Assembly (NCBI GenBank): GCA_963514005.1
Contig: OY740804.1
Coordinates: 19,654,001 to 19,718,000 of the forward strand
Source: Raja brachyura
Taxonomy: Eukaryota
Direction: 5' to 3'
Length of the DNA stretch: 64,000 bases
The position numbers and the translations under genes are program-made. Below the pieces are notes generated by a model. It had not been told where the DNA came from and searched no databases. It was given only the letters and a program-made list of their open reading frames with translations. Positions 14,314 to 54,699 of the stretch are shown one piece after another; position 1 is the first letter of the stretch; every line of letters begins with the position of its first letter.

Positions 14314-14736
14314 TTCTCCCAGCTCCGATTCTTCCGGCAGTCACTGAATTCTTCTGCTGACTGCCTCAGCTAAACAGAAAATGACAGACTACGTATTTGA
14401 CCTGGGGATGCAGTGGAAACTAGTTAATACGATCCACAGAAAAGGTCCTTCTGGCCTGGCCCGGCCCGCCCCCCCCCCCCCACATGCTAAGCTCTTCCAG
14501 CCTTGGAGCCACGGGGATCCCCGTTGACAGTTCTATCCTTCGCAGCCCTTGGCTCAGTCTCCGGCGATGTGGTAGGTCTGTCCCCCAGCCTGGCACTGCT
14601 CCAGTCCCACAATACTGGGACCATGACCGAGGGGGGTTCAATAAACTGGGGAATGCCCAGGATTTGCCCTCACCCATTAATTAGGGGGGGTTCAGGAGCC
14701 GGTGAAACCCGGGACCTCCGTGGCAGTCTCACTCAC

Positions 14737-15054
14737 CGTACACTTCCAGTCGGACTCTTGCTAGAATTTCAGATCCTGAATTTGTTACAAAAATCACCTC
14801 GTAATCAGCAGTGTCTTCTATCCGTAGATCACGGATTTCCAGTTCATACCTCTCAAGATTAAAAGTTACCCGGTTTTTGTACTCCATAGTACCAAAGTAT
14901 TCAATGTTGTTCTTTGAGTATTCCGCTATCCTGATATTGGGTAACCGTTTCCACACCACCTCAGTAATATGTGGTCCAACAGCCATCCCAGTAGGTAACA
15001 AGACGTTTCGACCCACAGTTCCGATCACAGGACGAGGGTCAGCCCCAGTCCCAG
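14737..15054 (-). CDS. Gene A exon: cysteine-less IgV domain (CD2/SLAM type)
   Basis: ctcAG acceptor with upstream CTAAC branch point, GTGAGT donor, 318 nt, phase 1-1; AGTGADPRPVIGTVGRNVLLP..VVWKR..YKNRVTF..LEIRDLRIEDTADYEV..VRLEVY; B- and F-strand Cys are absent. Confidence 0.9.
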
Positions 15055-17239
15055 CTGAGGAGACAAGAGAGACAGTTAGCAGAAGAGTTCAGTGACTGGA
15101 GGAGGAATCGGAGCTGGGAGAATCACAGAGCACAGGAGCAGGGCATGCGGCCCATCGTCTGTCTCCCGGCTCTGTGAGAGACCGGCCCACAGTTGAACAG
15201 AGTGAAGACTCTCTGCACCCGGGGCTGCGGTAGGAAGTTACAGCCTGCAGCCAGATCTCGACAGATGGGTCAGGGTGCAGACACGGTAAATAGGACCCAG
15301 TCTGGAGAAGGGCTGAGGGTTTATGATATTCTATCAGTGCACAGATTAGACACAGAGGGAAGCTCCTCTAAACTGTGCTACATAGGCTGGACATGGAGGT
15401 TGTCCTCTCCACTTACATTGACAGCATGATCCTCACAAACACAGATCCTGTTTAGTCGTGGAAGATGAGCAAGTGCCAGTGGGACTTATTGGCCTCATCC
15501 TCCACACAAATCAATTTGGATAAGTCTTTTGTACTCTCACTACCGTAGAGACGCAGTGATTCCCCTTGTCCCAAAAGGAATCCATCAAATTCTTCTGGAC
15601 CTTGGTGGCAAAGACATGGGGAATGGGCAAAAGTGTCTAACTGGTACAACGGCATGGAGGTCACCAGTTGGTTTTTAGCTAGTGCTCGGTCCTTGTAGGA
15701 AAGCACTCAGAGCAGTTCTGCCAAGTGATGACTTTCACCACCAAATCCTGCCCGTTTGCTGGCCATGCTTCATCAACGGGGCTCAGGTAGAAGCCCCGGT
15801 AGAGGAGGTAGGGGGTGCGCCAAGCAAAAGGTCTCATTTATTCTAGCAGGGAGTCCAGCTGCCACGGATCCACCAAGATCCGTAATGTTTATCGCAATTG
15901 ATCTGAACACAGGACGCGTCTGAAATACTCTCTAGCACTCACATACCCTCTGCAGATTCGCAAACAGTTGTAACTATTCTGTCAGGCTGCACTGAGTGTC
16001 TCTCCTCCTGACACCCTACAGCTTCTCCACTATCTACAAAGCACGTCGGGATGTGATGGAACACTCTCCGCCTGCCTGGGTGAGTGAAGCTCCAACAACT
16101 CACGAGATGTTCAACATCATCAAGAACAAAGCACGTGCTCGAGCAGCTCCCCATCAAGTGCCCTAAACACTCCCTCCACTACTGGTTTACAGTGGCTGCA
16201 GTTGCAGTTATACAACACTGAAACACACTCATCAGCCCAACTCTCCAATGCCGATCATGATGCCTACCTAAGCTAGTCCCCATTTGTCTGTGTTTCGCCT
16301 ATATCCCTCTAAACAGTTTCTATCCATGTATCGTTCCTTTAATTGTAAGTGTACCCAGTTTTACCACTTCCACTGGCAGTTTGATCCATACATCCACCAT
16401 GCTCTGTGTGAAAAACGTGCCCCTCATGGCCCCTTTAATTTTTTTTCCCTCCATCTCACCTCTGCCCTCCAGTTGTAGCTGACATTCCTCACTGTCCACA
16501 ATAGCACCAATTTTGGTGACATTCGCAAACATACTGATTACGCCAGCTAAATTATTAATATATGCGACAAACAGGAGACCCAGCACTAATCGCAATGGCA
16601 CACCACTGGTCACAGACCTCAAATCTGGGGAAAAACAACCCTCAACTCCTTTCAACACAATTTTGCACCCAAATGGTTAGCTCATCCTAGTTCCCCTGTG
16701 ATCTCCCCTTCCAGACTAGTTGACCATTGTCAAAGGTCTTGGTGAGCTCCATGTAGATAACCAATAAGCTCATCAATCCTCCTGGTTACCTCTTACAAAC
16801 TCAGTCACAAAGCCGTGCTGAATTTCTCTAATTGTGGTGACACAATGGGACAGGTGGTAGAGCTGCTGTATCATAGTGCCAGAGACATGGGTTCGATCTT
16901 GACCCTGGGTGCTTGTGTGCACTTTCTCTCTGTGACTGCGTGGATTTCCTCTAGGTGCTCTGCTTCCACCATTTTTCAGATCGACCCTGTCTCTTAGAAT
17001 TCACTCCAGTCGCACCTGCTCTTTTATAATGTTGCCATTCTGCAGGATATCACTGTTCCCTTCTCTGAATGCACTAGTTACCATGTCATTCTCCACAATC
17101 AATGCAGATGAGTATTCATTTAAAACCTCATCCATCTCCCATGGCAACACATACAGATTCCCACACTGATCCTTCACGGCACCTACTCTCTCCCCAATTA
17201 TCTTTTTGCTCATAATATACAGTATATCATAATATAAGT

Positions 17240-18110
17240 CTACAGAGAGATTTGGGCCATTTGGAAAAGTGGGCTGAAAGATGGAAGATGGAGTTTAATG
17301 CTGATAAGTGTGAAGTGCTACATCTCGACAGGACAAATCAAAATAGGATGTACATGGTAAATGGTAGGGAATTGAGGAATGCTGTGGAACAGAGGGATCT
17401 AGGAATAACTGTGCATAGTTCCCTGAAGGTGGAATCGCATGTAGATAGGGTGGTAAAGAAAGCTTTTGGTGTGCTGGACTTTATAAATCAGAGCATTGAA
17501 TATAGGAGTAGGGAAGTCATGTTAAAATTGTACAAGGCATTGGTAAGACCAATTCTGGAGTATGGTGTACAATTTTGGTCGCCTAATTATAGGAAGGATG
17601 TCAACAAAATAGAGAGAGTACAGAGGAAATTTACTAGAATGTTGCCTGGGTTCCAGCAACTAAGTTACAGAGAAAGGTTGAACAAGTTGGGTCTTTATTC
17701 TTTGGAGCGCAGAAGGTTAAGGGGGGGGACTTGATTGAGGTCTTTAAAATGATGAAAGGGATAGACAGAGTTGACGTGGATAAGCTTTTCCCATTGAGGG
17801 TAGGGAAGATTCAAACAAGAGGGCATGACATGAGAATTAAGGGACAGAAGTTTAGGGGTAACATGAGGGGGAACTTCTTTACTGGGAGAGTGCTGGCTGT
17901 GTGGAATGAGCTTCCAGCAGAACTGGTGGAGGCAGGATCGATTTTAACATTTAAAAGTAAAGTGGATAGGTATATGGACGGGAAGGGAATGGAGGGGTAT
18001 GGTCTGAGTGCAGGTAGATGGGACTAGGGGAAAATAAATGGTCGGCACGGACTGGAAGGGCCGAGAGGGCCTGTTTCCGTGCTGTAATTGTTATATGGTT
18101 ATATGGTTAT
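17240..18110 (+). mobile_element. CR1 3' fragment of a second subfamily
   Basis: WAERWKMEFNADKCEVLHL..LVRPILEYGVQFWSP; tail TTATATGG repeats. Confidence 0.85.
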
Positions 18111-19517
18111 ACTGAACCTTTTGAGATTCCCCTTTACCTTATCTTCCAGGGATATCCCCGTCCTCTTTTTGCCCCTCTAATTTCCTTCTCAAGTGTTCTC
18201 CTACATATTTTTTACTCCTCGAGGATTCACTGTGACAAACATAGGCTTTCTTCCTTTTTTGGGCACAAGCTCAATATCTCTCATCAGCCAGGGTTCCTTA
18301 ATCCTTCCAACCTTGCCTTTCACTCAACCAGGAACACGCCAAACTCCCATTTCATTCTCCCACTCTCATTTTTAAAAGCCTCCCACTTACCTTTACCTGC
18401 CAACAGCATTCCCAATCAAACTTTGCAAGTTCCTGTCTAACCCCATCAAAATTAGCATTACCCCAATTTAGGATTTTAACTTGTGGACCTGTCCTATCTC
18501 TTTCCACAAAGCCTTTAAAACTGACTAATAAAATTAAGGTAGCTGCTCCACTCACATATTAATACTCGCCCAAGCTTATTTCCCAATACAAATTCCAGTG
18601 TGGACCCTTCTCTGCTATGGTCATCTACATTTTGTAGAAGAAAACTTCCCCAGACATACTGAACAAATCCTAACCCGTCCAATCGTTCAGCACTCTGACC
18701 GTCTCAGTCAATAAAATCTCCTCCAATTACAGCCCTATTATTCCTACACCTATCAGCAACCTCCCTAATTCCTCCAAAAGTAAAATCCTATTAAAGTGAT
18801 CGTTCCTTACAATTTCTAAATTTTATCCATATGGCCTCACAGAACATTCAAGCAATATTCTCTGTACCACCAAGTTGTTCTCCCAAATCAATACCGTAAC
18901 ACCTCTCCTCTCTTACCTCTGTCTGGTATCTGTGCTCCAGAGCACTGAGATACACCTGCCCACCAATATTGCCGTAATAACCATATTATCCCAGTCCCAT
19001 GCTGTTATACAAAATACATTGCATTTTCTCACCTGGATGAGAACCTCTCCCACTGGGAAGGGACAAAGGCAGCAAGTGCAAGGGAACACCACCACTTGCA
19101 GGTTCCTCTCCAAGTCACACACTAACTCTGTCAGGCTGACCAGACCATCTCAAACCGCCTGCACTCTTGGAGCTCTCCTCCTCACGGACAATTCTTGTTC
19201 CGTCTAAAATCTCTTTTTATCATTTGCTCCCTCCCACGGAGCACCATTTTGGATCCAGTTTGCTGTTCTCGCTCGGGCCCTCTGGCCTTTGGCTTTCTTC
19301 ACCAGCCTAATAAAGACTGATGAAGAAAATCATAACTTATCAAAAGCCAAGGAGGCAGAGATAGAGTGGAGAAATACAGAGAGGCTGAGATTTAAGTCTA
19401 GGGAGGGACGGATGGAGGGAGGCAGAGATCAGTTTTTCCTCTCTCAGGGCGTGGGAAGTTGGGGTCACGGGTGGTTAGGATGAGCTTGGCTTGAAGCTAA
19501 ATCCGATGTGAGCTTAC

Positions 19518-19569
19518 CCAGACAGACGGCAAACACGGCGGCCCGGACCAGGCGGGTGAGCCGCCCCAT
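19518..19569 (-). CDS. Gene A leader (signal-peptide) exon
   Basis: AAGATGG start, MGRLTRLVRAAVFAVCL + G, GTAAG donor in phase 1; splices in frame to the IgV exon giving ...VCLAGTGA|DPRP; lies in a CpG-rich patch. Confidence 0.75.
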
Positions 19570-19599
19570 CTTATACCCTCTCTGGCGCCAAAGATCAGG

Positions 19600-27370: not shown

Positions 27371-27900
27371 TAGGGATGAGTCAGCACCTGCAGGAGATTC
27401 TAATAGCCGAGAGAAAACAGCCAGAGGTCATGGTCAACATTGGTTTTATTGACACGTGGAAAGATGGATGAGGTCTTCCGAGAGGAACAATTCTGAGAGC
27501 TGGGTCATAGGTGCAAGAGTAGGTTGTCATCTCTGCAATGTGATCGTGCTGGTTAGAGGTGTCTTATGGCAGCTACAGGGCATTCTAAAAGGGAAGGGTA
27601 AATAGCCGAGGTCATGGTCAGCACTGGTACCAATGACATGTACAAAGAGGGATAAGGTACTGCATCAGGAATTTTGAGAGCCACAAGATACAAGATACAT
27701 ATATTTGTTACATGTGCCAGTTGGCACGGTGAAATGTGATCACCATACAGCCATACAATAAAATAAAGAACACAACACACGATAGAGTTCAACATAAAAC
27801 ATCCACACACAGCAGAATCAAAAGTTTCCCACTGTGAGGGAAGGCACCAAAGTCAGTCATCTTCCTCTGATGTTTATGCATATGTCATAGTTTAAAGAGT

Positions 27901-28880
27901 ATTTTATTTCGGAGTCACGTGAGTGACTTCGTGAAGACCCCGCCAGCACGCATGCGCGACATATCGTCGCTCACAGTTGCTGTCGATGGCTGGAGGAGAA
28001 GTGCGCTCCACCACCAGCCCTTCATAAGGACCGCTCAGGTAAGGGGAACTAACCTTGAGTTGGTTAGTTCCTGTGGGGAAAACTTGTTTTGTTTCACAGG
28101 AACGATGGACAGGAGTAAGAGCATTTCTAGCCGCAGGACTTCCGATAGAAGTCAGCGGCTGCATACCCCGGAGCTGCCCGCTACAACGGCAGCACCCGCT
28201 CGTCGGGCTAGGAAAAGGGCGCGGAAGTCAGGAAGCCCTACACCAACGGGACCCGACTCTCCACCACAGCTGTCTTTAGAGCAGCAGAGTGGAAGGAGCA
28301 CCGCGCAGGAGCAGGGTAGACAAGATACTGACTCCTTGCCACTGTCCCCTACACATAGGGGCAGCATGGCTAAAATGCGTAGGGGTGTTACCCGCTCAAC
28401 GGCAAGTTCTCTCTCCCCAGCCATTCAGGTCACCAGAGAGCGAACCAGGGGAAGAGCCATACGCCAGTTGGTAAGCCCCGCTGAAGGAGCCGGGGTCGAC
28501 TTTCCACCGGAGCAGGCCGCCAGACTGCGGACCGGTGAGGGATCGAGACCGGGGTCTACTAGCCCCGCAGGTGCGGCCGGCATAGACTCACCACCGGGGG
28601 AGCCCGCCAGATCACGGGCCGGTGCAGTCTCATCTCGGTCACCGCACCCCCCTTTAGCAGCAGGACGTGACCGAACATCGCCTTCGTCCCTAAGGAGGAC
28701 AGGCGGCAAGCCCACGCGGACGTCGGGGTACCACGTTTCGTCGGCCGGGACCGACCTATCACCACTTATGTCCTTTCAGACCAGCGGGCCGCCTCTGTCC
28801 GGAAGACGGCGGACCAGCAGCAGGCCCGCGCGGGAGTCGCCTGAACCCCGCAGCAGCGACATCCTGTCACAGCGACTTCC
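27901..28880 (+). mobile_element. 5' end of a DIRS1-type retrotransposon (left terminus/ITR + start of gag-like ORF)
   Basis: 27901-27937 matches the ICR at 30071-30107 (1 mismatch); 27928-27956 matches the ITR at 29847-29875; S/R/P-rich ORF from ATG 28105. Confidence 0.8.
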
Positions 28881-29746
28881 TGACTTAACACAAAAGCTGT
28901 GATCGAGGACATAAAAGTCCATAACCTTCTTAAAAATTAAGAGAACTGAAATACATTTTCAGTTATTATAGATTGAAGCATTCTGAAACAAATATGAAAC
29001 TATCTTACTTGGATGACCTGAAATTAAAGCATATAATTAGTTAGTTACCCAATTGTAGCTAATTACAAAATTCAATTACTAAATCTAAACATCTATCCAT
29101 TTCTTAAGAAAATATTAACATTTTTAAATACCCTGTCCAAATAACATTCACACAATAATTCACAATATAACATGATTTTTAAATCTCATTGTCATGAATT
29201 TTATGGCCAAATGGAAGGAATTTAGTGTTTAATTCCAATAAATTAATGGCCATTTAAATCATCTTGCGAGTGGGATTTTGTGGAACGCGATCGTTTGAAA
29301 CGTTGCAGTTGCGGTGAATTTAAACCCCATATCGGCAGGAAAAATACTGCCGGTTTGTATGGGGCCTAAATCACATTTCACAACGTAAATGTGGATTAGG
29401 GTAATCCTAAGAAGCACGTTTATATGTAAAATAAACGGCTTTCCTTTAGCTGTTCCATACCTGAAATCCGTCCTGGTTATCAGCGTTGATGGCTTTAGAA
29501 GCGGCATTTTATTTTACTCCATCGCTGAAATTGTCCAGCTATTAAAAATAAAATTCACAGAACGGCAGTCGGAACAAATCTTCAGCATTAACTGGCTCCC
29601 CGAGAAAATATATCCAGGACAGGCGGAAGAAAAACGCATTTGAACCCTGCCCCCCCCCACCCCCCCTCCCCAAAGGTGCCAAAGTCGAGCGCATGGCTAG
29701 TGACAGAACTGCAGCGCCACTGAAGGTAAGTTTTGTAACATACCTA
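28880..29746 (+). mobile_element. Left-truncated copy of the TAG...CTA DNA transposon family
   Basis: Homologous to ~44630-45488 and ends TTTTGTAACATACCTA. Confidence 0.8.
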
Positions 29747-30318
29747 CTGTACTCACTCGGTGGTATCAGTAATAATAGTAAGATTAAATGAGAACTTACC
29801 AGTTTGAAGTTTGATCTTTATTTTATGAGGAGTTGCGATGAGGGATTTCATGACGACCCCGCCAGCACGCATGCGTGCCATTCTTCAAAGCAGCGGTGTG
29901 GAATCACAGAACTATCCAGAAATGACTAGCATGGTAAGATTGAAGAGACTCAATATACCAGTTGACCTTATAGTAGAGGGTTGGGAGCGGAGGGCACAAA
30001 ATCCCTCATCGCAACGCCTCATAAAATAAAGATCAAACTTCAAACTGGTAAATTCTCGTTTAATCTTACTATTTCATTTCGGAGTCACGTGAGTGACTTC
30101 GTGAAGATTTCAAAGCTCTGTGATTACATGCCCTGGATCACGTCCATGCACACACACGGCCACAATATTGATGGAAGGAGTATATTAACGTATTTCAGAC
30201 TTGACAGGCTGAAAAATAATAATGTTTATTAATCACAAAACAAAAGCTCCTCATTCGGGGATTGATGTATGTTGCTGACCAGCACTCAGCACGGTCTCTG
30301 CAAACATAGCAGGAGCGG

Positions 30319-31254
30319 TCACAGGTTTGTTGTAAAACCTCTGGAATGTAGCTTCACTGTGGCGAGGATATGGTTCATGGGCACCTCCATGGTCATCGCC
30401 GCTGATGTGGATGCAGCCCTGGTAGAATGGGATTTAAAGATATTAATATCAATACCTGCTGCATCCAGCACCACCCTGAGCCACCAGGAGATCGTCTGCA
30501 CCGTCACCCTGTGATGGGGTTTCTTATGGCTGATCAGCAGGTTCTTCTCCATTCCCCTGAGGGTATGCGTCACTTTAATGTAGTGACGGATATGGGTGGC
30601 TAAGCAGAGCCTCACATCAGTGGGGTATGCCGGAAATATCAGCTGCAGCCCTGTGAACCCAGGTCTATGCTGCTTGAGTAACTCATCAATATAGAAGGTC
30701 ACTCTCTCAGGGGTAGAGACCATTTTATCCATATTAATGTTATGTAAGGTCTGAACCCGCTGAGCTGATGTTAGCGCCATCAACATAACCAATTTCAGGG
30801 TGAGTTTGTCCAGTGGAAGTCCAATCATAGGTGACCAAGTCCTGAGTAGGGTCAGCACCACCCCAATATCCCAGGTGACATTGTAACGTGGTTGGGGAGG
30901 GTTTGAATTGAAGATACCCCTCATTAATTTGGACACAAGCTGGTGTGATCCTACCCCTATGCAGAGGTAGGAGGACAGTGCGCTCCTGGCACTGTTGATG
31001 GCGCTGTAACTGAGGCATTCATCATGGTGCAGCCCTGCGAGAAATTCCAGCACATGTGGTATCGTGGCAGAGTCATACGAGATGTTAATCCGTGTGCAGT
31101 AGGCCTCCCATTTTCTGGTTTGTGTCAGATACTGCCGTCTGGTAGACTCTCTGCACGATGCTCCGATGGTGTTCATGGTCCTTGGTGTGATTCCGTATTG
31201 TAGCAGAGGTCTCTTCAAAACCTGCAGGCCAACAGGTTCAGATGACTGTGGCAC
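30319..31254 (-). pseudogene. DIRS tyrosine recombinase (frameshifted before the catalytic Tyr)
   Basis: SAINSARSALS, LTSAQRVQTL, KSHSTRAASTS; the final TFQRFYNKP motif lies in another frame. Confidence 0.88.
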
Positions 31255-32216
31255 GGATGGTATCCCCCTGTAGTGTGGTTAGTCACCAAATCTGGGTTCT
31301 TGTTAAAAAGTGCCCATGGTTCTTTAATCATCCCAAGGACCACCGAATACCATGGTTGTGTAGGCCAGTCGGGTATTATTAAAATACCTGTTGCAGAATC
31401 TGATTTAATTTTCCGCAACACCCGACTGATGAAGCAAAATGGAGGAAATGCATAGAAAAACCATTTCCCCCAGTTCAGCGAGAAAGCGTCCATCGCTATT
31501 GCCCCAGGATCTGGTTCCCAAGATACATATGTTGGTATCTGATGGTTCAACCTGGACGCAAAAAGGTCGATATCCGGTGTACCAAATTTGGTTGTGCTTT
31601 TTGTAAATATTTGGGGATTCAACATCCAATCAATGTTATCATTGAATACTCGTGACCTGGTGTCCGCCACTGTATTGAGCTTACCTGGAAGATAGGTAGC
31701 TGATATCCAAATATTTTGTTCTATGCACCAGAGCCAAATTGAATTTGCCAATTCATCACAAGATATTGACTTGATACCACCCATATGATTTAAATATGCC
31801 ACCACAGTGGTATTGTCTATTTGGAGACGGACATGCGTATCATAGAGGCTTGTACAATAAGCTCGTAGTCCGTGAAATACTCCTAGCATCTCCAAATAAT
31901 TTATCCCTTGTGATAATAGAAGGGTAGATTTATGTGAGTCCCATCTGCCGCCACAACTGGAAGTAGCGTTGGTAGCTCCCCAACCTTGGGCGCTTGCGTC
32001 AGTTTGTAAAACCACTGACGGGTAAGGCACAATGATGGGCTTGAATGAGTTACGAATATTATCAATCCACCATTGTAACTCAAATTTTGCCTTGATTGGC
32101 AGCTGCATAGGTCTGTCAAAATGCCCAGCATTCATTTTTATTGCTGAAATCTTTGTTCTTTGTAAATTTTGATAATGTGAAGGTCCAAATTGGGCAGCTG
32201 GAAATGTAGCTACCAA
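31215..32216 (-). pseudogene. DIRS RNase H + DNA N6-adenine methyltransferase-like domain
   Basis: LQTDASAQGWG, INYLEM, IDNTTVVAYLNHMGG, NTVADTRSR (RNase H); DIDLFASRLN, YAFPPF, PDWPTQPWY (MT domain). Confidence 0.88.
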
Positions 32217-32270
32217 TTTCCCAATTACCTTAGCAGCATGTCTGATTGTCGGTGCACTGGCGCAAACAAG

Positions 32271-32783
32271 TTAATTACATGCTCCAATGATATCCATAGC
32301 TTTGTTAGCTAGGATTGAAGCAATCAATTGATCGGTGTCAATCGTGAATCCCAGATAGTCCATAACCTGTGATGGGTAGAACTTAGATTTGTCTGGATGG
32401 ATTACAAACCCCATTTTTTGAAACAATGATGTAGTAGCTGTTACTGCTAAATTTGTTGATTCCATGGTATCTCCTACTATTAAGATGTCATCTAAATAGG
32501 CCAGAACTATATGGTTCTGTCTCCTCAGTGTTGCTAACACTGGTTTCAATAATTTGATAAATAATCTAGGGGCTGTAGTAAGCCCATTAGGCAGGGCTCT
32601 ATATTGCCACAGCTGCTCCATCCAAACAAACTTCAAGAACTTCCGGTGATGTTTCCGTATGGATACTGAATAGTATGCATCTTTTAAATCGATGCATGCC
32701 ATGAAGCAAACTCTAGAAAACAGTAATTTGGCTGTTTCATACGTGTCCATTTTAAAATGGGTATATTGCACAAAGGTTTTCAA
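32271..32783 (-). pseudogene. DIRS reverse transcriptase (fragmented)
   Basis: IDLKDAYYSV..LPNGLTTAPRLF..YLDDILIVG..YLGFTIDT. Confidence 0.9.
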
Positions 32784-33272
32784 ATGGATTAAATCAATAA
32801 TGATACGACATCCACCATCTTTTTTGGTTTTAGTAAAGATGTTGGATATGAACTCAAGGTTCGTGAATCGTTTTTTCTATCACCCCTTTTTCTTGTAGCC
32901 TCAAAATTTCAACATGTCCTTCCGCTATTTCCTTATGGGAAAGTGCAAATTTACGGTCTGGTACATGTTGAGGCGGGGAAGTTGTTCATTCATGAACTCA
33001 ATTTTGTACCCCTGAATACTTTGTAAAATAAACGAGTCTGAAGTGATAGAACTCCATGCATCCCCAAAAAAACGCAATCTCCCACCAATTTGCGAGGTTA
33101 CACATGCAAACCGTGCATGAGAACCAGACCGCCTTATCTCCATGGTTAGCTGCCGACCTGGACATATTTGGTGTTTCGCGGAGGTGCTGGATTTTGGGTT
33201 TGCCGCATCTTCCACGCCGGCCGCTGAGGGCCTTGCCCTAAAAAAGGCTTCTGTTGTTGTTGTGACCTCATG

Positions 33273-34775
33273 ACTACAAGGCATGATTCCCCAAAATCTG
33301 TTTAGGTAACGGTTATTGGGGAAAAGGGACACAACACGTAGAACTCAAAGAGGACTAGATGAAATAGAAGGAGCAGGATATGCATCAGAGATATCCACAC
33401 TTAACATGACAGATCTAGCAGGACTTAGTGAAGACTTAGAGCAGCCGAGAGAGAGGATACAGAGTGGTAACAATGTGATTTAAAGATGCTGAAACACTTA
33501 GAAAGGCAGAAGAGAAAGCAGTGCAAGTATTACTTCAGTTAGTAAAAAGACGCAAGCCAAATGAAGGTACAATAAATAGAATGATAGACAGAGTGAGTAA
33601 TATTTCCAGGAAGAATATAAGAAACAGGTGTGTGTGGTGTCTATTCCAACTGGCTAATGCACCAGGTACAGAATAGCATTCTATAATTAGCCAACCACCA
33701 AATCCCCAAATGGATATCAACTCAACAATTTGCACGGTGCCGCAGTGGTAGAGCTGCTGCCTTGCAGCGCTTGCACCGCCAGAGACCTGGGTTCGATCCT
33801 GACTATGGGTGTTGTCTGTACAGAGTTTGTACGTTCTCTGCTGCTCTAGATGTCAGTTGCTCTACATCGGTGCGACCAAGCGTAGGCCTGGCAATCGCTT
33901 CGCTGAACACCTCCGCACGGTTCGCAATAACCAACCTGATCTCCCGGAGGCTCCTCCTCAACTCTCCCTCCCATTCCGAATCCGACCTTTCTGTCCTCGG
34001 CCTCCTCCATGGCCAGAGTGAGGACCACCGTAAATTGGATGAGCAGCACCTCATATTTCGTTGGGCAGTTTGCACCCCAGCGGTATGAACATTGACTTCT
34101 CTAATTTCAGGTAGTCGTTACTTTCTCCTTCCCTTCTCAGCTCTCCCTCAGCCCACTGGCTCCACCTCTGCCTCTCTCCTTCCCACCCTCACGTCAGTCT
34201 GAAGAAGTTTGACCTGAAATGTTGCCTATTTCCTTCGCTCCGTTGATGCTGCCTCACCCGCTGAGTTTCTCCAGCATTTTTGTCTACCTTCGATTTTCCA
34301 GCATCTGCAATTCCTTCTTAAACAAGGTAACTTTAAGGTCATGTTATGAGAGGCAATAAATCGATTTAGATGGGGTTTAGACTACAAGGCATGATTCTCC
34401 AATATCTGTTTAGGTAACAGTTAATGTGGAAAAGGTAGAACTCAAAGAGGACTAGAAGAAATACAAGGAGCAGGATATGCATCAGAAATATCCACAGTTA
34501 ACATGACAGATCTAGCAGGACTTAGTGAAGAATTAGAGCAGCGAAGAGAGAGGATACAGAGTGGTAGCAATGTGATTTAAAGATGCTGAAGCACTCAGAA
34601 AGGCAGAAGAGAAAGCAGTGCAAGTATTACTTCAGTTAGTTTCAAGACTCAAGCCAAATGGATATCAACTCAACAATTTGCATGGTGCCGCAGCGCCACC
34701 TTACACCCCTTGCAGCGCCAGAGAACTGGGTTCGATCCTGACTATGGGTGATGTCTGTATGGAGTTTGTATGTTC
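33273..34775 (+). repeat. Local direct duplication (33273-~33840 vs 34381-~34775)
   Basis: Both copies start ACTACAAGGCATGATT and run through GGATATCAACTCAACAATTTGCA into a SINE head. Confidence 0.85.
33840..34325 (+). mobile_element. Penelope-like element 3' fragment (GIY-YIG endonuclease + pLTR)
   Basis: CSRCQLLYIGATKRRPGNRFAEHLRTV; downstream pLTR with a degenerate CTGAAGA..GAAA motif. Confidence 0.85.
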
Positions 34776-37023: not shown

Positions 37024-38569
37024 GTAAGATTTCTCCGTGCCTGAATTAACAAGTGCTTTGGATCTGGCCATTTTGGTCAGTATGGTCACCAACATTATCT
37101 GGTCTGTGTCATCGGGGGAAGTACAGCTGGAGAGGAAACAACTCCAGTTACTGGAGACAAGTAGCTGACAGCTAGTCCCAGAAGGGTGGTGGATATTGGA
37201 GGGAATGGAGTAGTGAGGTGTGGGGTGATTGGAGAGGTGCTGAGGGTGGCATTGGTGGGTGACTGGTGTAGGGGTGGGGGTCTGCGCTGTTCATGCTTCC
37301 TTCCCTTGGAAAGGAAAAGAAGGGAGTCTAGAATGGGTTTACAGTTTGGTTGCTGGGATGGTGGGATTATCATGCATTTGAGCCTCCAGAGGTTGTGTGG
37401 GCTCATCCCTGAGGTGAATCAGGGCAGAGATCACCTCTTTTTTGTTAATTGAGAAAATATATATTTTGTCAGGAATGTCCTGCTGAGGTAAATCATTCAT
37501 GGTCTCATTGTAGAGGGAGAGCAGGTATGAGGGGGCCAGGAGTCATGGATGGGGACTGGGGGTTGGGGTCCAGGGGTCAGGAAGCAGTTTGGGGTTGTGT
37601 TGGTTGGAAACAAAGTTTTGTTCCACCACACTGCTTTCCTTTCTGCTTATATAGACACAAGGAACTGCAGGTGTTAAATTACAAAAAAAGAGACAAATTG
37701 CAGGAGTAACAGCAGGTCAGGCAGCATCTCTGGAGGACATGGACAGGCAACATTTCGGGCCATCTATCCATATTCTCCAGAGATGCTGCCTAACCATTGA
37801 GTTACTCCAGCACTTTGTGTCTTTTCTTTTCCGCGTGTTAATTTCCAAAGTGGTTTTATGTGGTTCCTTGGTTCCTGATGGAAATGGCGTTGTAACCAAT
37901 TTTGGCCAGTGTAATATAATAAGCGTTCCGTCATTCATCAGTTCATGTTATTTAAAGACACACTGTAGCAGAACTATCGATATTCTTATTGGTGGTTGAG
38001 GTGGGTAAAAATCAGTTGTTCCTTTTGCATAAACACTTCTCGCATCGGCTGCCAAACAATCAGCATTGTGGCTTTCTGTGTGTGATCACAGCGCCTCCAG
38101 CCTGGACCTCTGTCGCACTTTGTGTCTTTACATTCTTGTTACATGAGCAGACTGCTCACAACGTGTACCCACTGGAAGAGAGCACCTCGCCGAGCCCTCT
38201 ATCTCAACAGACCATTCCCGGAGAGAGATGCACGCTGAGCAACTGCTACTCTGTACCTGGGTGATTCTCCGCATCTCAGTCCGTGAGTTCTTTTCTAAGC
38301 AAATCTTTGTGTTTCACTTTCCTCTATCTGGCGTCTTTATTAAGTTCATAACTGGTATAATCCTGGACTCCACCCACCCAAGGCAGAGAAAATATGAGTT
38401 AGATACAGTGAAGTTCCGTCTAGACTGTCCCGTCACATATACCCAGGGCATGGGTTAACTGCAGAGTAAATCTCTCTCAACACCGTCCCCTCACACACTC
38501 CCAGAGCCCAGATTAGACACAGTGAAACTCCTTCCATAGCGTCCCCACACACTCCCAGGGCACAGGTTG

Positions 38570-44453: not shown

Positions 44454-45488
44454 TAGCAATGTTACAAAATTTTGAGATTTTAAAAATCAAGTCTGCAATT
44501 TATACCATCAGATAAAGCATAAAAGGAAGTTTAATTTGACACCTAATTCACTTTCATATCTTCAGTATTAAGAAAGTTATGGCCATTTTCATACTCGGAA
44601 ATGAGCATCTTGTTCCCCATTGCCTTTCAATTGACTTAACTCAAAAGCTGTGATCTGGAAAAGTTAAAAGCCCATAACATTCTTAAAAATTAAGAGAACT
44701 CAATGAAATTTTCAGTTATTATAGATTGAAGCATTCTGAAACAAATATTAAACAATCTTACTTGGATTACCTGAAATTAAAGCATATAATTAGTTAGTTA
44801 TCTAATTGTAGCTAATTACAAAATTCAATGAGTAGATCTAAACATCTATCCATTTATTAAGAAAAGATAAACTTTTTTTAAATTGCCTAAGTGTCCAAAT
44901 AACATTCACACAATAATCCACAATATAACATAATTTTTAAATCTAATTTTCATGAATTTCTGGGCCAAATGGAAGGAATTTAGTGTTTGATTCCTGTAAA
45001 TTAATGGCCATTTAAATCAACTAGCAAGTGGGTTTTAGTGGAATGCGGTGGATTAGAACGTTGCGGTTAGCGGTGAAGTCGGGGGGAAAAATACTGGGGG
45101 TTCATACATTTTTTGGGGACCCCATTTCGCAACATAAAAATATTATTAATGCCTCCCGAAAAACCAACTTTTAATATAAAAATAAAGTATTTACCTTTTT
45201 TTCTCCCCTACGGAAAATGCTTCCGGTTGTCTGCGCTCACGGCTTTTGAAGGTGATTTTTAAATTACTCTAGTTAATAAATAATCTAGAGTAATTTAAAA
45301 ATACCACCATTCATGAAATGTCGGAGCGATTTTTCTTCAGCAACCAAATCGCCCGACATTGATCGATTTGTCCTGCCTGTTGAAAAACGGCACTTTAAGC
45401 CCGGCCCCCTCTGCAAGGCGTGAAAGTCGCGCACACGGGGAGCGGCAGAAGTGCAGCGCCGGTAAAGGTACGTTTTGTAACATACCTA
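44454..45488 (+). mobile_element. Complete non-autonomous DNA transposon (~1035 bp), TAG...CTA termini, imperfect 16-bp TIR, 7-bp TSD
   Basis: Starts TAGCAATGTTACAAAA, ends TTTTGTAACATACCTA; CTCCTTG at 44447-44453 and 45489-45495. Confidence 0.9.
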
Positions 45489-46713
45489 CTCCTTGCTACA
45501 GTATATACAGCACCATTATTCATGTAACAGAAAGAGAGAGAGAGGGGCAAAGAGAAAGATTACAGAAGGCAACCCACCTTTTTCTCTCCCTCCCCATCTC
45601 TGTGAGAAACTGTCTCTCCTATGGCTGACATTGCAGTAAGTGCGGAGTGACAACAGGAGTTGCAGTCTGTTCTTTTTTGTTAATATTTTTAGCAGGCAGT
45701 TGACGGGTCTGACTGCCCAAAGTAAAGAGTCAAGAGTGAAGAGTGTTTAAATGTCATGCGTATGAACAATGGAACAATTAAATTCTTACTTGGAGCAGCA
45801 TAAAGGGCCTGTAACAAAAATAAAATAAATACATTCATAACTAACCTCACCCCTCCGTTCAAAAAAATACATGCAAAAAGGGCTGAAGTCCTTAGAGCAA
45901 TCAAAGTCAGTCCACGGTTTATAGTTTAGTTAATGTTTTGTTGTGTTCAAGAACCTAATGTTTGCTGGGACGGAGTTATAATTGAATCTGGTGGTCACCG
46001 TATTCAGACTTTTAAACCTTCTTCCTGATTCTAGGAGTGAACAGAGAGACATTCCAAGGGCTTGTGGGTCTTTCATGATGCTCCCTGCTTTTTATGAAGC
46101 AGTCTATCCTATTGATGGTGGGGTGATCAGTACCCATGATAAAGAAATTGGTGGTGTCCAGCACTTCTTACAATCTCCTTTGTTCCTGCATGTTTCAGTT
46201 TAGTTTAGTTTAGTTTAGAGATGTACAAACTCCGTACAGATCGAACCCAGGTCTCCAGCGTTGCACTCGTTGTAAAGTAGCAACCCTAACGCTGCTCCAC
46301 CATGATCTTGCTGAACAAGATTGTTATACACCTATCTGTAGAAGTTCGAGAGAGTATTCACGTTCACATGTAATAGGAGTAAAATTGGGCCATTCGGTCC
46401 ATCAAGTCTACTCTGCCATTCAATCATGGTTGATCTCTGCCTTCTAATCACATTTCCCTGCCTTCTCCCCATAACTCTTGACGCCCGTTCTAATCAAGAA
46501 TTTGTCTATCTCTGCCTTAAAAATATCCACTGACTTGACCTCCACTGTGGCAATGAATTTCACAGATTAACTACCCTCTGACTAAAAAAGTAACTCCTCA
46601 CCTCCTTTCCAAAAGGGCGGACTTTAATTCTGAGGCTATGACCTCTGGTCCTAGACTCTCCCAGCAATGGAAGCATCCTTTCCACATCCACTCTATTTTT
46701 CATTATTCGGTCA

Positions 46714-49540: not shown

Positions 49541-49663
49541 ACACATTTGTTCAAGCTTATCAACAGGTATCAAACATTCTCAGGAAAGGAAATCTGCTCT
49601 AACCTGGTGACTTCCTTATCAGTTTACTTGATCTCCCAGTTCTTTGTCCCCCTTTATGAATTA

Positions 49664-51165
49664 CTAGACTAAGTGCAGACCCGTTGGGTCCGCTTCCCCA
49701 ACGCAACATTCCACCACTCACCCGTTCCCCCAACGCAACCCATTCCCCCAATGCAATATTCCACCACTCTCACATAGCCCTCAACTGCGCAGGCACGGCT
49801 CATTTCCCCTCATCCCCAGCACTCCCTCCTCCTCCTCTTCACCCTCCCTCTTCTTTGCCCTCGCCCAATCCCTCCATCCCCTCTCCCTCTCCTTTCCCCT
49901 ACCCTCAGTCACTCCCTCACACCCTCCATAACTCCTCCCTTCCCTACCCCCTCCTATCCCTCTATCCCCCACTCCTCACCTCCCCCTATCCCCCCCATAT
50001 CCTGACCTCGCCGCTGCCCTCCTCTCTCTCTATTCCCCACTCCCTACCTCCTCCACTACCCCCACTCTCCCTCCTCACCTCCCCCAATCCCCCCCTACCC
50101 CTCCTCTCCCTCAAGGCCCCCACTCTCCCTCCTCACCTCCCCAGGATCTTCCACTCTCCTCCTCCCCTCCCCCAATCCCTGCCACACCTCTCCCTCCCTC
50201 TCCTTTCCCTTATCCTCAGTCACTCCCTCCCTCCATAAAGAGCAGCATCTGCAATTCCTTCCTCCACAGGTCATTCATTGTTAGCTGTGGTTTAGATCCC
50301 GTTGACTTGACGATTGCACCAGTTTGCATCGTGTGTGTGTGTGTGTGTGTGAGTTACTCAAACTCCACCCAAACTGCTCGGCCACCCTGCAACCCAACTC
50401 TCCCTCCCTCCCTCTGCCCACTCCTGCTCGGCCCATCCCCGTCCTGTCCGACTGCCCGCTGCTGCCGCTCGGCCCGTCCACGCCCTGTCCACCGACCTAC
50501 CTGCCTGCCTGCTCGCTGCTGCCATTGGGCTGGGCCACGGGGGGGGATGGAGTTGGTTCATCATGGTTGGCACCACGAGTTTCGACGAGCTGGTGGAGAA
50601 GATCTCCTCAAAGAGGGCCATGTGGGTGAGTTACTGCAGCTGTGGCGGAGGAGAGTGACAGTCACAGCCATTCACCCGGGAGGATGGGTAGGTGGGACCA
50701 CCATTGCCACAGACGGAGGGCAGGGGAGAGGGGTGAGTGAGGGAGAGGGAGACTGAACCAGGGCCTCCACTGAACCTCCCCCCTGCGGCCACCGCCGGTG
50801 GTGGGGGAGACGGTGGATAAGTTACTGTGAGGAGGGGAGAGAGGAGTTTGTGAATGAGGCGGGAAAGGCCACGGTGCAGGAAGGGGAGTCACCAGCCCGG
50901 TCGTGGACTTGACTGACAGGAGAGGAGACCAATCTGCGTGGCGCTGACTGACAGAAGAGAGCAATCTGCGCATGTGCAGTTTTAAAGATAATTAAACCTT
51001 AATAACTTTTAAAGTATACCATCGATGGGAACAAAACTTATTGCACTTGCAGCACAGGAGAATGATGAGTAAGGTGGCGAAAAATTGTAGCGCTATCGTG
51101 TATCATTTTTGTGCAAATAGAAAACCCAGGCAAACTGGAAGATCACAAGATCAGAGTTTTATAGA
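49664..51165 (-). mobile_element. Non-autonomous Helitron
   Basis: Minus strand starts TCTATAAAACTCTGATC and ends CTAG; GC-rich hairpin GCGGACCC-AAC-GGGTCTGC (49675-49693) 11 nt from the 3' end; inserted between A and T with no TSD. Confidence 0.85.
50547..50625 (+). pseudogene. ALG13: Captured ALG13-like first coding exon (2-nt deletion) inside the Helitron
   Basis: ATG GAG TTG G/TTC ATC ATG GTT GGC ACC ACG AGT TTC GAC GAG CTG... = MEL(V)FIMVGTTSFDELVEKISSKRAMW, then GTGAGT; resembles the ALG13 N-terminus MKCVFVTVGTTSFDDL. Confidence 0.75.
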
Positions 51166-51211
51166 TAACCGGCGGGGAGGGAGAGAGGGAGAGAGGGAGA
51201 GAGAGAGAGAG

Positions 51212-52246
51212 TAGGTACGTTACAAAACTTACCTTGAGCAGCGCTGCAGTTCTGCCGCTCCCCGTGTGCGCGACTTTGGCGCCTTTCAGAGGGGGGCGGG
51301 CTTAAAGTGCCGTTTTTCTTCAGACTGGGCAAATCGATCAATGTCGGGCGATTTTGTTGCGGAAGAAAAATCGCTCCGACATTTCATTAATGAAGGTAAT
51401 TTTAAATTACCCTACATTATTTATTATCTAGAGTAATTTAAAAATCACCTTCAAAAGCCGTGAGCGCCGATAACGGGAAGGATTTTGCGTAGGGGAGAAA
51501 AAAAGGTACACAGTTTATTTTTATATTAAAAGTTGGTTTTTATGGAGGCTTTAATAATATTTTCATGTCGCGAAATGGGGTCCAAAAAAAATGTGTGAAC
51601 CAACAGTGTTCTTCATACCGACTTCACAGCAAACCACAACGTTCCAATCCGCCGCATTCCACTAAAACCCACTCGCTAGTTGATTTAAATGGCCATTAAT
51701 TTACAGGCATTAAACACTAAATTCCTTCCATTTGGCCCAGAAATTCATGAAAATTAGATTTAAAAATTATGTTATATTGTGGATTATTGTGTGAATGTTA
51801 TTTGGACACTTAGGCAATTTAAAAAAAGTTTATCTTTTCTTAAGAAATGGATAGATGTTTAGATCTACTCATTGAATTTTGTAATTAGCTACAATTAGAT
51901 AACTAACTAATTATATGGTTTAATTTCAGGTCATCCAAGTAAGATTGTTTCATATTTGTTTCAGAATGCTTCAAACTATAATAACTGAAAATTTCATTGA
52001 GTTCTCTTAATTCTTAAGAAAGTTATGGGCTTTTAACGGTTCCAGATCACAGCTTTTGAGTTAAGTCAATTGAAAGGCAATGGGGAACAAGATGCTAATT
52101 TCCGAGTATGAAAATGGTCATAACTTTCTTAATATTGAAGATATGAAAGTGAATTAGGTGTCAAATTAAACTTCTTTTTATGCTTTATCTGATGGGATAA
52201 ATTGCAGACTTGATTTTTAAAATCTCAAAATTTTGTAACATTGCTA
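51212..52246 (-). mobile_element. Complete copy of the TAG...CTA DNA transposon, inverted relative to 44454-45488
   Basis: Starts TAGGTACGTTACAAAA, ends TTTTGTAACATTGCTA; inserted in a GA microsatellite with GAGAGAG on both sides. Confidence 0.9.
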
Positions 52247-53529
52247 GAGAGAGAGAGAGAGAGAGAGAGTCTGAACTGTAACTCTATTTCCACATGTCCA
52301 CATGGAAGTTAACATCCAATAACAGCTGCTCCTAACTTACACTCTCTAGCTCTTGCTTAATAATATTGTAATCTACTTTATCCCAATGTAGTACCTTTCC
52401 CCAAAGTCCAGACATCCTTATTCATAACTATCTTAAGACCCATGAAGTTGCGATCACTGCTCCAAAATGCTCTCCCACTGAATCACTAGTCTCCTGGCCA
52501 GACCCGTTTCCCAATACAAGGTCTAATATGACAACAAATTATAGATCGATGAGATGTAGTCACATGAATATAGTAAAGCCTTTGATAAGGTTCTGCGCTA
52601 CGATAAAGTATGTGGGATCCAAAGCAAATTGGATCCAAAGTTGGCTTGGTGGGAGGAGACAGAGGGTAACATTTATGATTGGAAGTCTAGCCTATGGTAA
52701 GTGGTGACCCACAGTGATTGGTGCTGGGATCCTTACTGCGTAGCATATACATTAATGATCTTAATATGAATATAATAAGTATGATTAGTAAGTTTGCAAA
52801 TAACATGGACATTCGTGGAATTTTTAACAATAAGGAGAAAGTCGCAGGCTACGGAATGATATTGATTGCCTGGAAATTGGGTGGACAAATAGATTGAAGG
52901 AGAGAATGAAGATGTTGGGATTGTTTTCCTTGAAACAGAGGCTGAGGGGGATGTTCACAATTATGCCCATATAGATATGGTGGATAGTGAGGAACCTCAT
53001 CCCATTACACAGATGTCTAAAATCTGACAGCATAGGTTTCAGGTGAGGAGTGAGAAAGTTAGCAGAGACATCAGGGTTTCTCTTCCATATGGGTTAATCA
53101 GTGAAGGGTATAATCTGGGGCAGTTGAAGAGAATACAGTGGTGGTTGATGGCTGGTACAGACTCAATGGGCTGACGGGCCTGTTTCTCTGATTGTAATCC
53201 CAGCTGGGTTGGAGTCAGATCAGTCTGGATTCCTCCCACTACTGAGGCTTGTTGATGCTTTCACTTGACATATTCCAGGCTGAATGACATCCTCCGGCCT
53301 ATCCATCGATATCTGGCTGGAGCTGTAACTTCCTTCCTCAGACCTGGGCGCAGAATCTTCACTCTGTTCCCCCCGTGAGCTCACTGTGTGATGGAACTGG
53401 GGTCTCTAACAGAGCCGGGAGCCAGACGATGGGCCGCATGGCCTGCTCCTGTGCTCTGTGATTCTCCCAGCTCCGATTCCTCCTCCAGTCGCTGAGCTCT
53501 CCTGCTGACTGCCTCTCTTGTCTCCTCAG

Positions 53530-53847
53530 CAGGGACTGGGGCCGCCACTGGCACCGTGACTGGAGCTCGGGGACACTCGGTCTCCTTGCCTGCTGGGATC
53601 CCAGTCGCACGGGACAATGCAGGGGTTGAGTGGAGGCGGACATCACCCAGAACCAAGATAGCGAAGTACTCGAATGAGAATATTGAATACTATGTCACCA
53701 ATTACACGGGACGGGTAACACTTCACCGCGGGAACTTCAGTCTGGAAATCCGAGATCTACGGAGAGAGGACGCTGGTGATTACGAGATCGTTGTTATTAC
53801 AAGGTCAGGAACGGAAATTCCGGCAAGAGTCCAACTGGAGGTGTACG
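53530..53847 (+). CDS. Gene B exon: cysteine-less IgV domain (CD2/SLAM type)
   Basis: ctcAG acceptor, GTGAGT donor, 318 nt, phase 1-1; AGTGAATGTVTGARGHSVSLP..VEWRR..YTGRVTL..LEIRDLRREDAGDYEI..VQLEVY. Confidence 0.9.
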
Positions 53848-54699
53848 GTGAGTATGACTGCCGCGGACATCCCGGCTTCCTCCGCCTACTGAGCCCCCTA
53901 ATTAATGGGTGAGGGCAAATCCTGCGTGTACCCCAATTTACTGAACCCCACTGACTGCCAGTGTACAGAGTGGGGGTCACAGCACAAGTGTAGTGGGACT
54001 GGGGCAGTGCCAGGCTGGGGGACAGACCTACCACATCCCCGGAGACTGGGCCAGGGGCCGCAAGGGATCGAACCATCAACGGGGAACCTCGTAGCTCCGA
54101 GGCTGGAAGAGCTGAACACATGGGAGGGAAGGGGGGGACTGATCTGACCCTGGCCTCGGCTCCGCTTTCCTGCTTGTTCCCCTCAATCCTTGACTTCCTT
54201 CCTGACCCAAACTCCATCTCAGCTTTGAATATATACATTCAATGACTCAGTCTCTACTGCTCTCTTGGGAGAGAATTCCAAAGAATCCCCACCCTCGGGA
54301 AGCAGAAAGAATCATAAGTGCACCCTTGCCTCCCCATCACCGGAATGCACCTGTTTCTTTCTCCTCTGTGTGGTGATCCAGCTCCCCTTAAATCCCTCAG
54401 TTAGATTCAGTGCAGCAACTCCCTGTGGGAACAAGTACCACATTCCCACTACTCTAAGCATTTTCTCCACATATTAGACCAAGCTGGCCAAGTCCTGAAG
54501 GACAGAACAGCCAGACTGGGTCAGTGACAGGGAGTGAGTGAGCCAAGACCAGGGACAAATCGACCTGACCTGGTCCTCCCCAGTCCAGCTGCGGCAGGTC
54601 CCTGATACCACTGGTGATAGATACCAGTCAGTGTACAGATATCCCCCTGAGAGAGAGTGGCTATAAGACACCAGTCAATGTACAGATATCCAGTCAATG

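Follow-up and report, generated by a model that had tools for sequence, protein, structure and literature searches.

In the 64,000-nucleotide stretch of Raja brachyura DNA analysed here (the window), two genes of opposite orientation, called A and B, carry IgV exons that differ far more than the introns next to them. The question raised by this locus is whether such a contrast marks diversifying selection on the binding domains of a linked receptor-ligand or paired-receptor couple, as the original prediction held, or the way in which the introns have evolved. Self-BLAST confirmed the inverted duplicated block predicted at 14480-15256 and 53311-54122, aligning 14469-15269 with 54136-53298 at 74.4% over 847 columns. 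The two V exons (14737-15054 on the minus strand for A, 53530-53847 on the plus strand for B) were 318 bp long each with AG/GT ends, and the anticipated V-domain identity of ~50% (54/107) was reproduced by tblastn (50.5%, 54/107), being 53/104 once gaps and the split first codon were set aside. The ~125 bp of upstream intron were alike as claimed, with slightly fewer differences than the estimated one base in ten (8/125, 6.4%). Over the whole upstream intron block A and B differed at 9/150 positions, and at 40/239 in the downstream one, while identity dropped from 92-98% in the intron to 60-63% in the middle of the exon. The divergent orientation of the two genes also stood, but a head-to-head arrangement need not imply adjacency, the start codons at 19569 and 38228 being separated by 18.7 kb.

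Structure of genes A and B

Gene models were derived from homology and from the automatic annotation available for other species. Gene A, on the minus strand, starts with a leader (signal peptide) exon (19518..19569, ATG..G/gtaag, phase-1 donor), which matched the N-termini of the skate orthologues P0038/P0039. It is followed by the intron block upstream of V (15055..15269), likely homogenised among the eight paralogues described below and containing a branch point, a pyrimidine tract and a ~55-nt imperfect hairpin, by the CD2/SLAM-type IgV exon (14737..15054), by the intron block downstream of V (14469..14736), aligned with the B block by Self-BLAST and shared over its first ~110-155 bp with a dispersed repeat family, and by an IgC2 exon with four cysteines (10608..10892). 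The transmembrane (TM) exon lies outside the window (G000:C24:19638552-19638370(-)), and the tail, of the same type as in p6 and p7, has no ITSM/ITIM and no tyrosine motif. Moreover, 54 bp of the upstream intron block recur in inverted orientation (14314..14367, plus strand, 89% identity) at the edge of a LINE-like repeat.

Gene B, on the plus strand, has a predicted leader exon (38228..38282); no other de novo candidate appeared within 20000-53400, and this one resembled the leader region of p8 (72%) as well as the leader of P0031, a ray protein. Its likely homogenised intron block upstream of V (53298..53529) precedes an IgV exon (53530..53847) that was identical to paralogue p3 at 87/106 residues, formed a mosaic with a p3-like 5′ part and a p8/A-like FG loop, and matched the folds of CD2, 2B4, CD48 and CD84; parts of the downstream block (53848..54136) occur in many copies across the genome. 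Between the V exon and the exon encoding a Thr-rich stalk and TM (57643..57861) neither a C2 exon nor a remnant of one was found, which gives a V-stalk-TM build like that of ray proteins P0027/P0031. A grouping of B's V domain with V-only ray proteins was rejected (AU p 5e-4). The cytoplasmic exon (58020..58108) carries an ITIM-like IDYADL and matched sawfish P0008/P0026 at 48-52%, and the likely last coding exon of B (58810..58858), with an ITSM-like TEYAAV, matched the P0008 tail at 54% (E 0.026); the splice phase of the latter needs an intervening exon, which was not found. When the stalk-TM exon was used to look for an orthologue of B in skates, 0/1005 candidates passed, which is weak evidence, and the comparison with a related organism gave 3 differences in about 280 exon bases, too few for use.

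An eight-gene SLAM-like cluster

A and B are two of eight IgV paralogues in a SLAMF-like cluster and not a special pair. The upstream intron block precedes all eight. A hidden leader exon within it was discarded, since the block is interrupted by an in-frame stop in A, B and p8, and since leader exons lying elsewhere were identified for A, B, p2, p3, p4, p6 and p8, with a likely one for p7. The concern that the flanks might be a generic interspersed repeat did not hold upstream, where 9/9 candidates were the eight paralogues plus the one 54-bp fragment, but it did for part of the downstream flank (763 first-look candidates, 40 of them scored).

Membership in the CD2 family, proposed originally, was upheld as CD2/SLAM type by sequence, fold and Pfam matches. 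In particular, the best PDB sequence matches of the V domains were CD84 and CD2, the top five fold matches were CD2, 2B4 (two chains), CD48 and CD84, and Pfam Receptor_2B4 was above cut-off for B. The V domains of A and B contain zero cysteines, and a missing V-domain disulfide is a trait of the CD2/SLAM family. An IgC2 domain follows IgV in A and six other paralogues but not in B, matching the V-only ray proteins P0027/P0031, while exons encoding a cytoplasmic ITSM (TxYxxV/I) occur in p2, p4 and probably B, but not in A, p7 and p3. Clustering and linkage to FCER1G-region genes, a trait of SLAMF as opposed to CD2/CD58, were likewise observed: an FcR-gamma-like TM exon lies 145 kb beyond B, with DED-domain and Complex1_49kDa (NDUFS2-like) exons in between (two of the hits among the 79/233 ORFs scanned), and these neighbours presumably resemble the human 1q23 gene order. 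Automatic annotations in other batoids were SLAM5-like, Ly9-like and CD48-like, and no study of this skate cluster was found in a literature search with subscription journals mostly outside its reach.

Furthermore, A and B belong to the old members of the cluster, and the tree rejected them as sister copies. The identity of A to the other paralogues was 42-50% in C2 and 45-54% in V, so that A is as divergent in the one domain as in the other. Three skate genera carry orthologues of A (V identity of 73% in Rhinoraja and 87-89% in Amblyraja and Leucoraja), and where A and p7 retain collinear remnants of intron these agree at 75-82%; the duplication is therefore old.

Divergence of the upstream intron block

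In the ~190 bp preceding the V exon, differences amounted to 3-10% among seven paralogues and to 13-18% for the eighth, and in the intron before C2 to 27-35% in old pairs. Tree lengths for six paralogues were 0.22 for the upstream intron, 0.66 for the C2 intron and 0.90 for V third positions (B and p8 were excluded from the C2-intron tests, and p8 from the downstream-intron trees, as a repeat replaces that part). The upstream tree was star-shaped, and its being merely a slower copy was rejected against both the C2 intron (p 0.0013) and V third positions (1e-5), while these two fitted one tree (rate p 0.095, shape p 0.51). On the other hand, the upstream block of the young pairs had changed about as much as their background, with 14/183 vs. 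411/6259 differences in p6/p7 and 6/185 vs. 138/3382 in p3/p4, where a constraint-only model expects 3.2 and 2.0 upstream differences, respectively (p 8e-6 and 0.018). The star-shaped tree together with the background-rate drift in young pairs points to gene conversion in the upstream intron. Conversion was visible in other parts of the duplicated block by a PHI-type test (p 0.004), and identical runs were found for p6/p7 downstream (p 0.002) and for B/p3 within the exon (p 0.004), both uncorrected. As 8 of the 51 variable upstream columns were informative and no significant A/B conversion run appeared in the block, no donor-acceptor event was pinned down upstream. The downstream contrast cannot be put down to sequence context, since neutral repeat copies were equally diverged in their exon-derived and intron-derived parts (10.2% vs. 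10.5%, nine copies; 4/13 loci, L009, L011, L020 and L021, were left out of the alignment, shortened or deleted).

If the block worked as a splicing enhancer, an RNA hairpin or an intronic enhancer, purifying selection would also keep it alike, with little conversion and approximately neutral exons, although we regard this as improbable. The block is cluster-specific and adjoins the splice acceptor, most copies share a similar hairpin fold (RNA z −1.2 to −3.4 in seven copies, the windows being picked after the fold was seen), its last ~40 nt were apparently unchanged in two Rhinoraja gene models reading into it (P0021, P0022), and proportionality of the upstream tree with C2 third positions was not rejected (p 0.64). 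However, both young pairs diverge there at background rate, the tree was star-like even without the last 40 nt (p 6e-4), and the hairpin showed no covariation, with compensatory change in 0/52 pairs. An intronic snoRNA or miRNA was discarded because none of the seven loci had an Rfam match in the block (four sub-threshold hits fell elsewhere). The splice signals and the modest hairpin make some constraint possible alongside the conversion that we favour.

Selection on the V and C2 exons

The V exons of A and B gave a dS of 0.47-0.55, higher than the dN of 0.35-0.38 (dN/dS 0.67-0.79), next to an intron divergence of 0.06 upstream and 0.19 downstream. The upstream intron, taken in the original prediction as a neutral clock, fails as one at such a dS. 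Moreover, dS far above intron divergence had been named in advance, along with dN/dS well below 1, as evidence against diversifying selection; the former was found, but the latter was not. Across the family, omega was about 1.07 in V and 1.06 in C2, so that little net constraint on V survives from the claim of diversifying selection on the binding domain, but not its being specific to V. The front face of V had an omega of 1.45 (p 0.04 vs. 1), and was not faster than other non-core sites (1.23, p 0.31). Site tests, run with our own codeml-like code and not PAML (five beta classes, NEB, one fixed tree), gave p 0.08-0.11 for M2a/M1a, 0.05-0.06 for M8/M7 and 0.03 for M8/M8a, and recombination inflates such tests. 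As M2a converged to a broad class with an omega of 1.4, no list of selected sites is given. Positive selection in V is borderline.

A strong, V-specific positive selection driving the domains apart, with the introns showing a true and recent duplication age, has very little probability in our judgement. It would agree with a non-synonymous divergence above that of the pooled flanking introns (Fisher p 3e-6), with the M8/M8a and front-face results, and with the lower identity of p2/p3 to p6/p7 in V (44-47%) than in C2 (56-64%). Synonymous sites, however, exceed the introns equally (p 2e-7; 8/31 fourfold sites differ between A and B), the duplication is old, C2 omega equals that of V, and the V exon of A differed from a related organism's contigs at 4/341 bp vs. 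40/1602 bp nearby, which are small counts. Overall, dS far above the intron level largely refutes V-specific selection.

Candidate paired receptors and binding partners

Outside the window, p3 and p4 share 102/106 V residues, and their counterparts 104/106 in Amblyraja and 93/106 in Rhinoraja, vs. 79-85/106 for the same tail type between species; V domains grouped by species and not by tail type in the three skates (AU p 4e-4 and 6e-44). The p4 tail has the ITSM TIYDTV, and p3 has a 17-aa tail and an Arg at the TM start, in CxxR and not NxxR. All V differences between p3 and p4 (4/4) were non-synonymous and on the front face, where 11/19 of the B/p3 differences also fell, this face comprising 28/105 sites (p 0.004-0.005). 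These features suggest that p3 and p4 are likely paired receptors that have a ligand in common but differ in their signalling, and they likely carry a better signature of this kind than A and B, for which that role was not borne out, as their V domains are not near-identical (54/107, and 8/19 modelled interface positions identical).

That A and B form a counter-receptor pair of their own, in the manner of CD48-2B4 or CD58-CD2, with A as the ligand and B as the signalling receptor, is in our view unlikely. The predicted complex of the two V domains scored 0.61, the best of three controls reaching 0.01, with three runs agreeing in at least 95% of contacts, a partner pLDDT of at least 83, and a modelled interface that would set the C-C′ loop against the FG loop on the expected GFCC′ face. 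The predictor's mark was reached by 51/78 solved complexes and 2/108 mismatched pairs in microbes, and by 39/65 solved pairs without a like older complex and 2/126 unrelated pairs in eukaryotes. In addition, interface positions of A had changed at 0/17, 1/17 and 6/17 sites relative to the Amblyraja, Leucoraja and Rhinoraja orthologues, respectively, and the tails are complementary, A lacking a tyrosine motif and B having ITIM/ITSM-like ones. On the other hand, the pass may reflect like complexes that have been solved (2PTT, 1QA9, 2PKD, 2IF7), and the predictor is reported to have passed close cousins of true partners in 10/12 cases and to give no indication of the family member that binds, so that this modelled complex cannot single out A and B. 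The modelled interface is also near-symmetric and homodimer-like, 7/9 mammalian SLAMFs are homophilic (PMC4718992), six other paralogues qualify as partners just as well (A's tail type being found in p6 and p7 too), and head-to-head layout is common in the cluster, which has four genes on each strand.

Proposed explanation

Repeated conversion involving all paralogues has probably homogenised the ~190-bp intron block, while the V exons are likely held apart by selection. Conversion tracts would land in the sole long near-identical stretch left between repeat-filled introns; those that would replace A's V exon by one of B type would be removed by selection, and their removal would produce a divergence peak that includes synonymous sites. 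B, p3 and p4 would still exchange V sequence, with new changes mainly on the GFCC′C′′ face, p3 and p4 acting as the likely paired receptors, and binding between V domains would likely be face to face, as in other SLAMs. A broader scheme is tentative and, taken as a whole, doubtful: skates may possess a SLAM paired-receptor system of ITSM/ITIM-tailed and short-tailed, FcR-gamma-coupled members with a converted, fast-changing shared V, beside an FcR-gamma gene, where A-type genes would have escaped to become the self ligand and the hairpin intron block would be the conversion seed. In a converting cluster a flanking intron is no neutral clock, and the present one is a compact natural case of converting and escaping paralogues side by side. 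If p3 and p4 do signal in opposite ways, the paired-receptor logic of the SLAM family would extend to cartilaginous fish.

Comparison with known systems

Bovine CEACAM32, relative to CEACAM1, escaped from concerted evolution (PMC7042247); as in the skate, its IgV exons are far apart within highly similar surrounding introns, conversion being kept non-coding, and the escaping gene groups by orthology and the others by species. Unlike CEACAM32, the present family is SLAM-like, and a homogenised upstream stretch of ~190 bp is common to eight genes. Human red/green opsins also have converted introns flanking an exon held divergent by selection, but two genes are involved there and the target residues are known (PMC3924837). 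The mammalian SLAMF cluster (CD84, Ly9, CD48, CD244; PMC4718992) shares the IgV-IgC2-TM build, the clustering of genes and the ITSM-type tails seen in p2, p4 and probably B, whereas identity is about 30%, there is no one-to-one orthology, B has no C2, and short-tailed Arg-TM members and species-wise V homogenisation fall outside the consensus build described there. On the other hand, p3/p4-type genes resemble KLRC, PIR and Ly49 (PMC3210942) in sharing V within a species with differing TM and tail, unlike A and B, which share no V domain. Finally, Xenopus CD2/SLAM members have NxxR TMs (PMC4536121), and the p3-type short-tailed TM also starts with Arg, but in CxxR; for charged-TM SLAM members, the literature found mentions Xenopus only.

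Results

The inverted duplicated block put forward in the original prediction proved to be real, with window positions 14469-15269 matching 54136-53298 at 74.4% identity over 847 columns, and each copy holding one 318-bp IgV exon (gene A, minus strand, 14737-15054; gene B, plus strand, 53530-53847). As claimed, the V domains shared about half of their residues (54/107) and the upstream introns were closely similar, with 8 differences in the last 125 bases (9/150 in the upstream block and 40/239 in the downstream block). The possibility that the flanks were generic repeats held for part of the downstream block, a dispersed repeat, and failed for the upstream block, which was specific to the cluster. 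The downstream-intron piece at 53927-54037 sits in a very high-copy repeat, which is probably a shorter or second family; contig depth there was 7,000-19,000, and single-copy DNA had about 10. Moreover, an imperfect ~55-nt hairpin, present in most paralogues, lay 70-125 nt ahead of the acceptor (15123-15177, minus; 53408-53461, plus) and could be a conversion seed or influence splicing.

The window spans positions 19654001-19718000 of contig G000:C24. The V exon appeared eight times between 19.345 and 19.708 Mb of this contig, four times per strand (A, B and the paralogues p2, p3, p4, p6, p7 and p8). By sequence and fold, the V domain belongs beside CD84, CD2, 2B4 and CD48. The nearest named proteins were skate proteins automatically annotated as SLAM5-, Ly9-, CD48- or HEPACAM-like, which makes a skate the probable source of the sequence. 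An FcR-gamma-like exon was located 145 kb past B, with DED-domain and NDUFS2-like exons in between (79 of 233 ORFs scanned), and we take the gene neighbours of the cluster to match human 1q23. More distant V and C2 exons flanking the cluster (G000:C24:19285584, 19719316, 19723644, 19754555, 19772639 and 19778500) probably represent further SLAM/CD2-like genes, and an orphan short-tail TM exon, a 24-bp V-end fragment and an inverted frameshifted C2 between p8 and p3 (G000:C24:19431042, 19437439 and 19442523, respectively) are the remains of a rearranged gene. Within the window, DIRS-like retroelement remnants (27871-33344), whose frames are presumably RT, RNase H/methylase-like and tyrosine-recombinase-like, lay in the stretch that separates the A leader from the B leader. 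A degenerate tandem array occupied 60762-62443 (32-34-bp unit, about 27 plus 8 copies), and a palindromic ~1-kb repeat family had two copies upstream of B (44454-45491 and 51209-52246; 93% identical, inverted orientation) and others at 8862-9742 and 28881-29758.

Gene builds predicted by homology gave A, on the minus strand, a leader (19518-19569), V, C2 (10608-10892) and a TM exon 15 kb left of the window, with a TM type shared by p6 and p7 and a predicted tail lacking ITSM and ITIM. B, on the plus strand, would comprise a leader (38228-38282), V, a Thr-rich stalk with TM and an ITIM-like exon, with no C2; its last exon is probably the ITSM-like one, through a predicted join. ITSM-type tails were found in p2 and p4, and a short-tailed TM type with Arg at the TM start in p3 and p8. 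A tree built on 67 V domains placed A with orthologues of three skate genera and next with p6/p7, and B with p3, p4 and p2; the two genes are thus old non-sisters. In the p2 V exon (L002), the D-x-G-x-Y motif has Cys at the position where Gly is conserved. A broken paralogue (L077-L078, G000:C24:19871632-19883315, plus) had a C2 exon with a stop and a deletion and a B-type stalk-TM exon with a frameshift, and no V exon was found there; C2 beside this stalk-TM suggests that B's ancestor had a C2.

The upstream intron, taken earlier as a measure of neutral divergence, proved unsuitable for this purpose. The upstream block differed by 3-10% within seven paralogues and by 13-18% against p8, and the intron before C2 by 27-35% in old pairs. 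One tree fitted the C2 intron and V third positions, from which the upstream block departed in rate and shape (P = 0.0013 and 1e-5, respectively), being an outlier among the compared regions; its proportionality to C2 third positions was not rejected (P = 0.64). In the young pairs, the upstream block kept pace with the collinear background (p6/p7, 14/183 vs. 411/6259; p3/p4, 6/185 vs. 138/3382), a result that would not be expected from constraint alone. Recombination was detected in the block, with tracts in p6/p7 (downstream) and B/p3 (within the exon); no significant A/B tract was found upstream, where informative sites were few, and splice signals and a modest hairpin lacking covariation argue against conversion there.

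For A/B, dN was 0.35-0.38 and dS 0.47-0.55 by counting and ML, with a bootstrap share of dN ≤ dS of 0.85-0.95, and divergence at non-synonymous and at synonymous sites was higher than in the flanking introns taken together (P = 3e-6 and 2e-7, respectively). The original prediction had held that a dN/dS well below 1 with dS far above intron divergence would speak against diversifying selection; dS did exceed the intron level, and dN/dS was 0.67-0.79. Over the eight paralogues, omega was 1.07 for the V exon and 1.06 for the C2 control, so both Ig domains are fast-evolving. Site models of V, fitted on one tree despite recombination, gave P-values of 0.08-0.11 (M2a/M1a), 0.05-0.06 (M8/M7) and 0.03 (M8/M8a). 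Front-face sites, assigned by us from strands of the structure model, had an omega of 1.45 (28 sites; P = 0.04 vs. 1, P = 0.31 vs. other non-core sites), compared to 1.23 for other non-core sites and 0.41 for the core. Hence, fast V evolution stood, and the evidence that positive selection specific to V drove A and B apart was weak.

A and B do not share a V domain, unlike what is expected of paired receptors. A shared V was found in p3/p4 (102/106 identical, with different TM and tail), with zero synonymous changes and with 4/4 changed residues lying on the front face. Automatic gene models show V shared between these two tail types inside other skate genera as well, at 104/106 in Amblyraja and 93/106 in Rhinoraja, and a grouping of V by tail type was rejected by a tree test. 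The A-B V-V complex, predicted without alignments, scored 0.61 (best control, 0.01), with contact agreement of at least 95% and partner pLDDT of at least 83 across runs. The pass mark was reached by 51/78 solved and 2/108 mismatched microbial pairs, and by 39/65 novel solved and 2/126 unrelated eukaryotic pairs. Since structures of similar complexes already exist, near relatives of a true partner often pass and SLAMFs are mostly described as homophilic (PMC4718992, in part), the model indicates a SLAM-like geometry and does not single out A as the partner of B.

A non-autonomous element of ~1.9 kb, ending in terminal inverted repeats of ~15 bp (L009-L021; contigs C1, C3-C6, C10, C11, C16, C20, C29, C37 and C1421 of G000), had captured the 3′ half of a V exon resembling that of p2, along with ~110 bp of intron, its source being closest to L002. 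Among the best 40 of 882 candidates, 37 lay outside the cluster, about 30 with the exon part, and copies were ~10% different. The 5′ end was found in 8/12 loci and both ends in 3, one of which had an 8-bp target duplication (7/8). It is a likely multicopy Pack-TIR, of which the available part of PMC8277862 counts only four cases in 100 animal genomes. Between p2 and these copies, change was 12.1% in the exon vs. 8.1% in the intron.

Discussion

Overall, the observation was confirmed and its interpretation partly supported. Introns would be converted between paralogues while selection holds the exon apart, and the resulting peak of divergence would take in synonymous sites; selection on V may thus be understood as resistance to homogenisation, not as a measured high dN/dS. 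A looks like an escaped, conserved member of the cluster, its V matching orthologues at 93/105 (Amblyraja) and 91/105 (Leucoraja) residues, with residues 32-60 unchanged, and its C2 at a lower 78/93 and 77/93.

Literature searches, at the level of their listings, yielded no description of the cluster; every ingredient is of a known kind, and the CD2/SLAM family has been noted for rapid diversification (PMC11882424, in part). The short-tailed TM motif was CxxR, different from the NxxR of FcR-gamma partners and Xenopus CD2/SLAM members (PMC4536121, in part), which makes adaptor coupling no more than a lead. V sharing in p3/p4 matches the homogenisation of opposing receptors (PMC3210942) and agrees with the conversion of reptile CEACAM pairs in opposite orientation (PMC13278318, preprint), as far as the available parts of both sources go. 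Finally, the same pattern of converted introns and an exon kept apart appears, in the accessible portions of the respective papers, for bovine CEACAM32 vs. CEACAM1 (PMC7042247) and, with a divergent exon, for opsins (PMC3924837).
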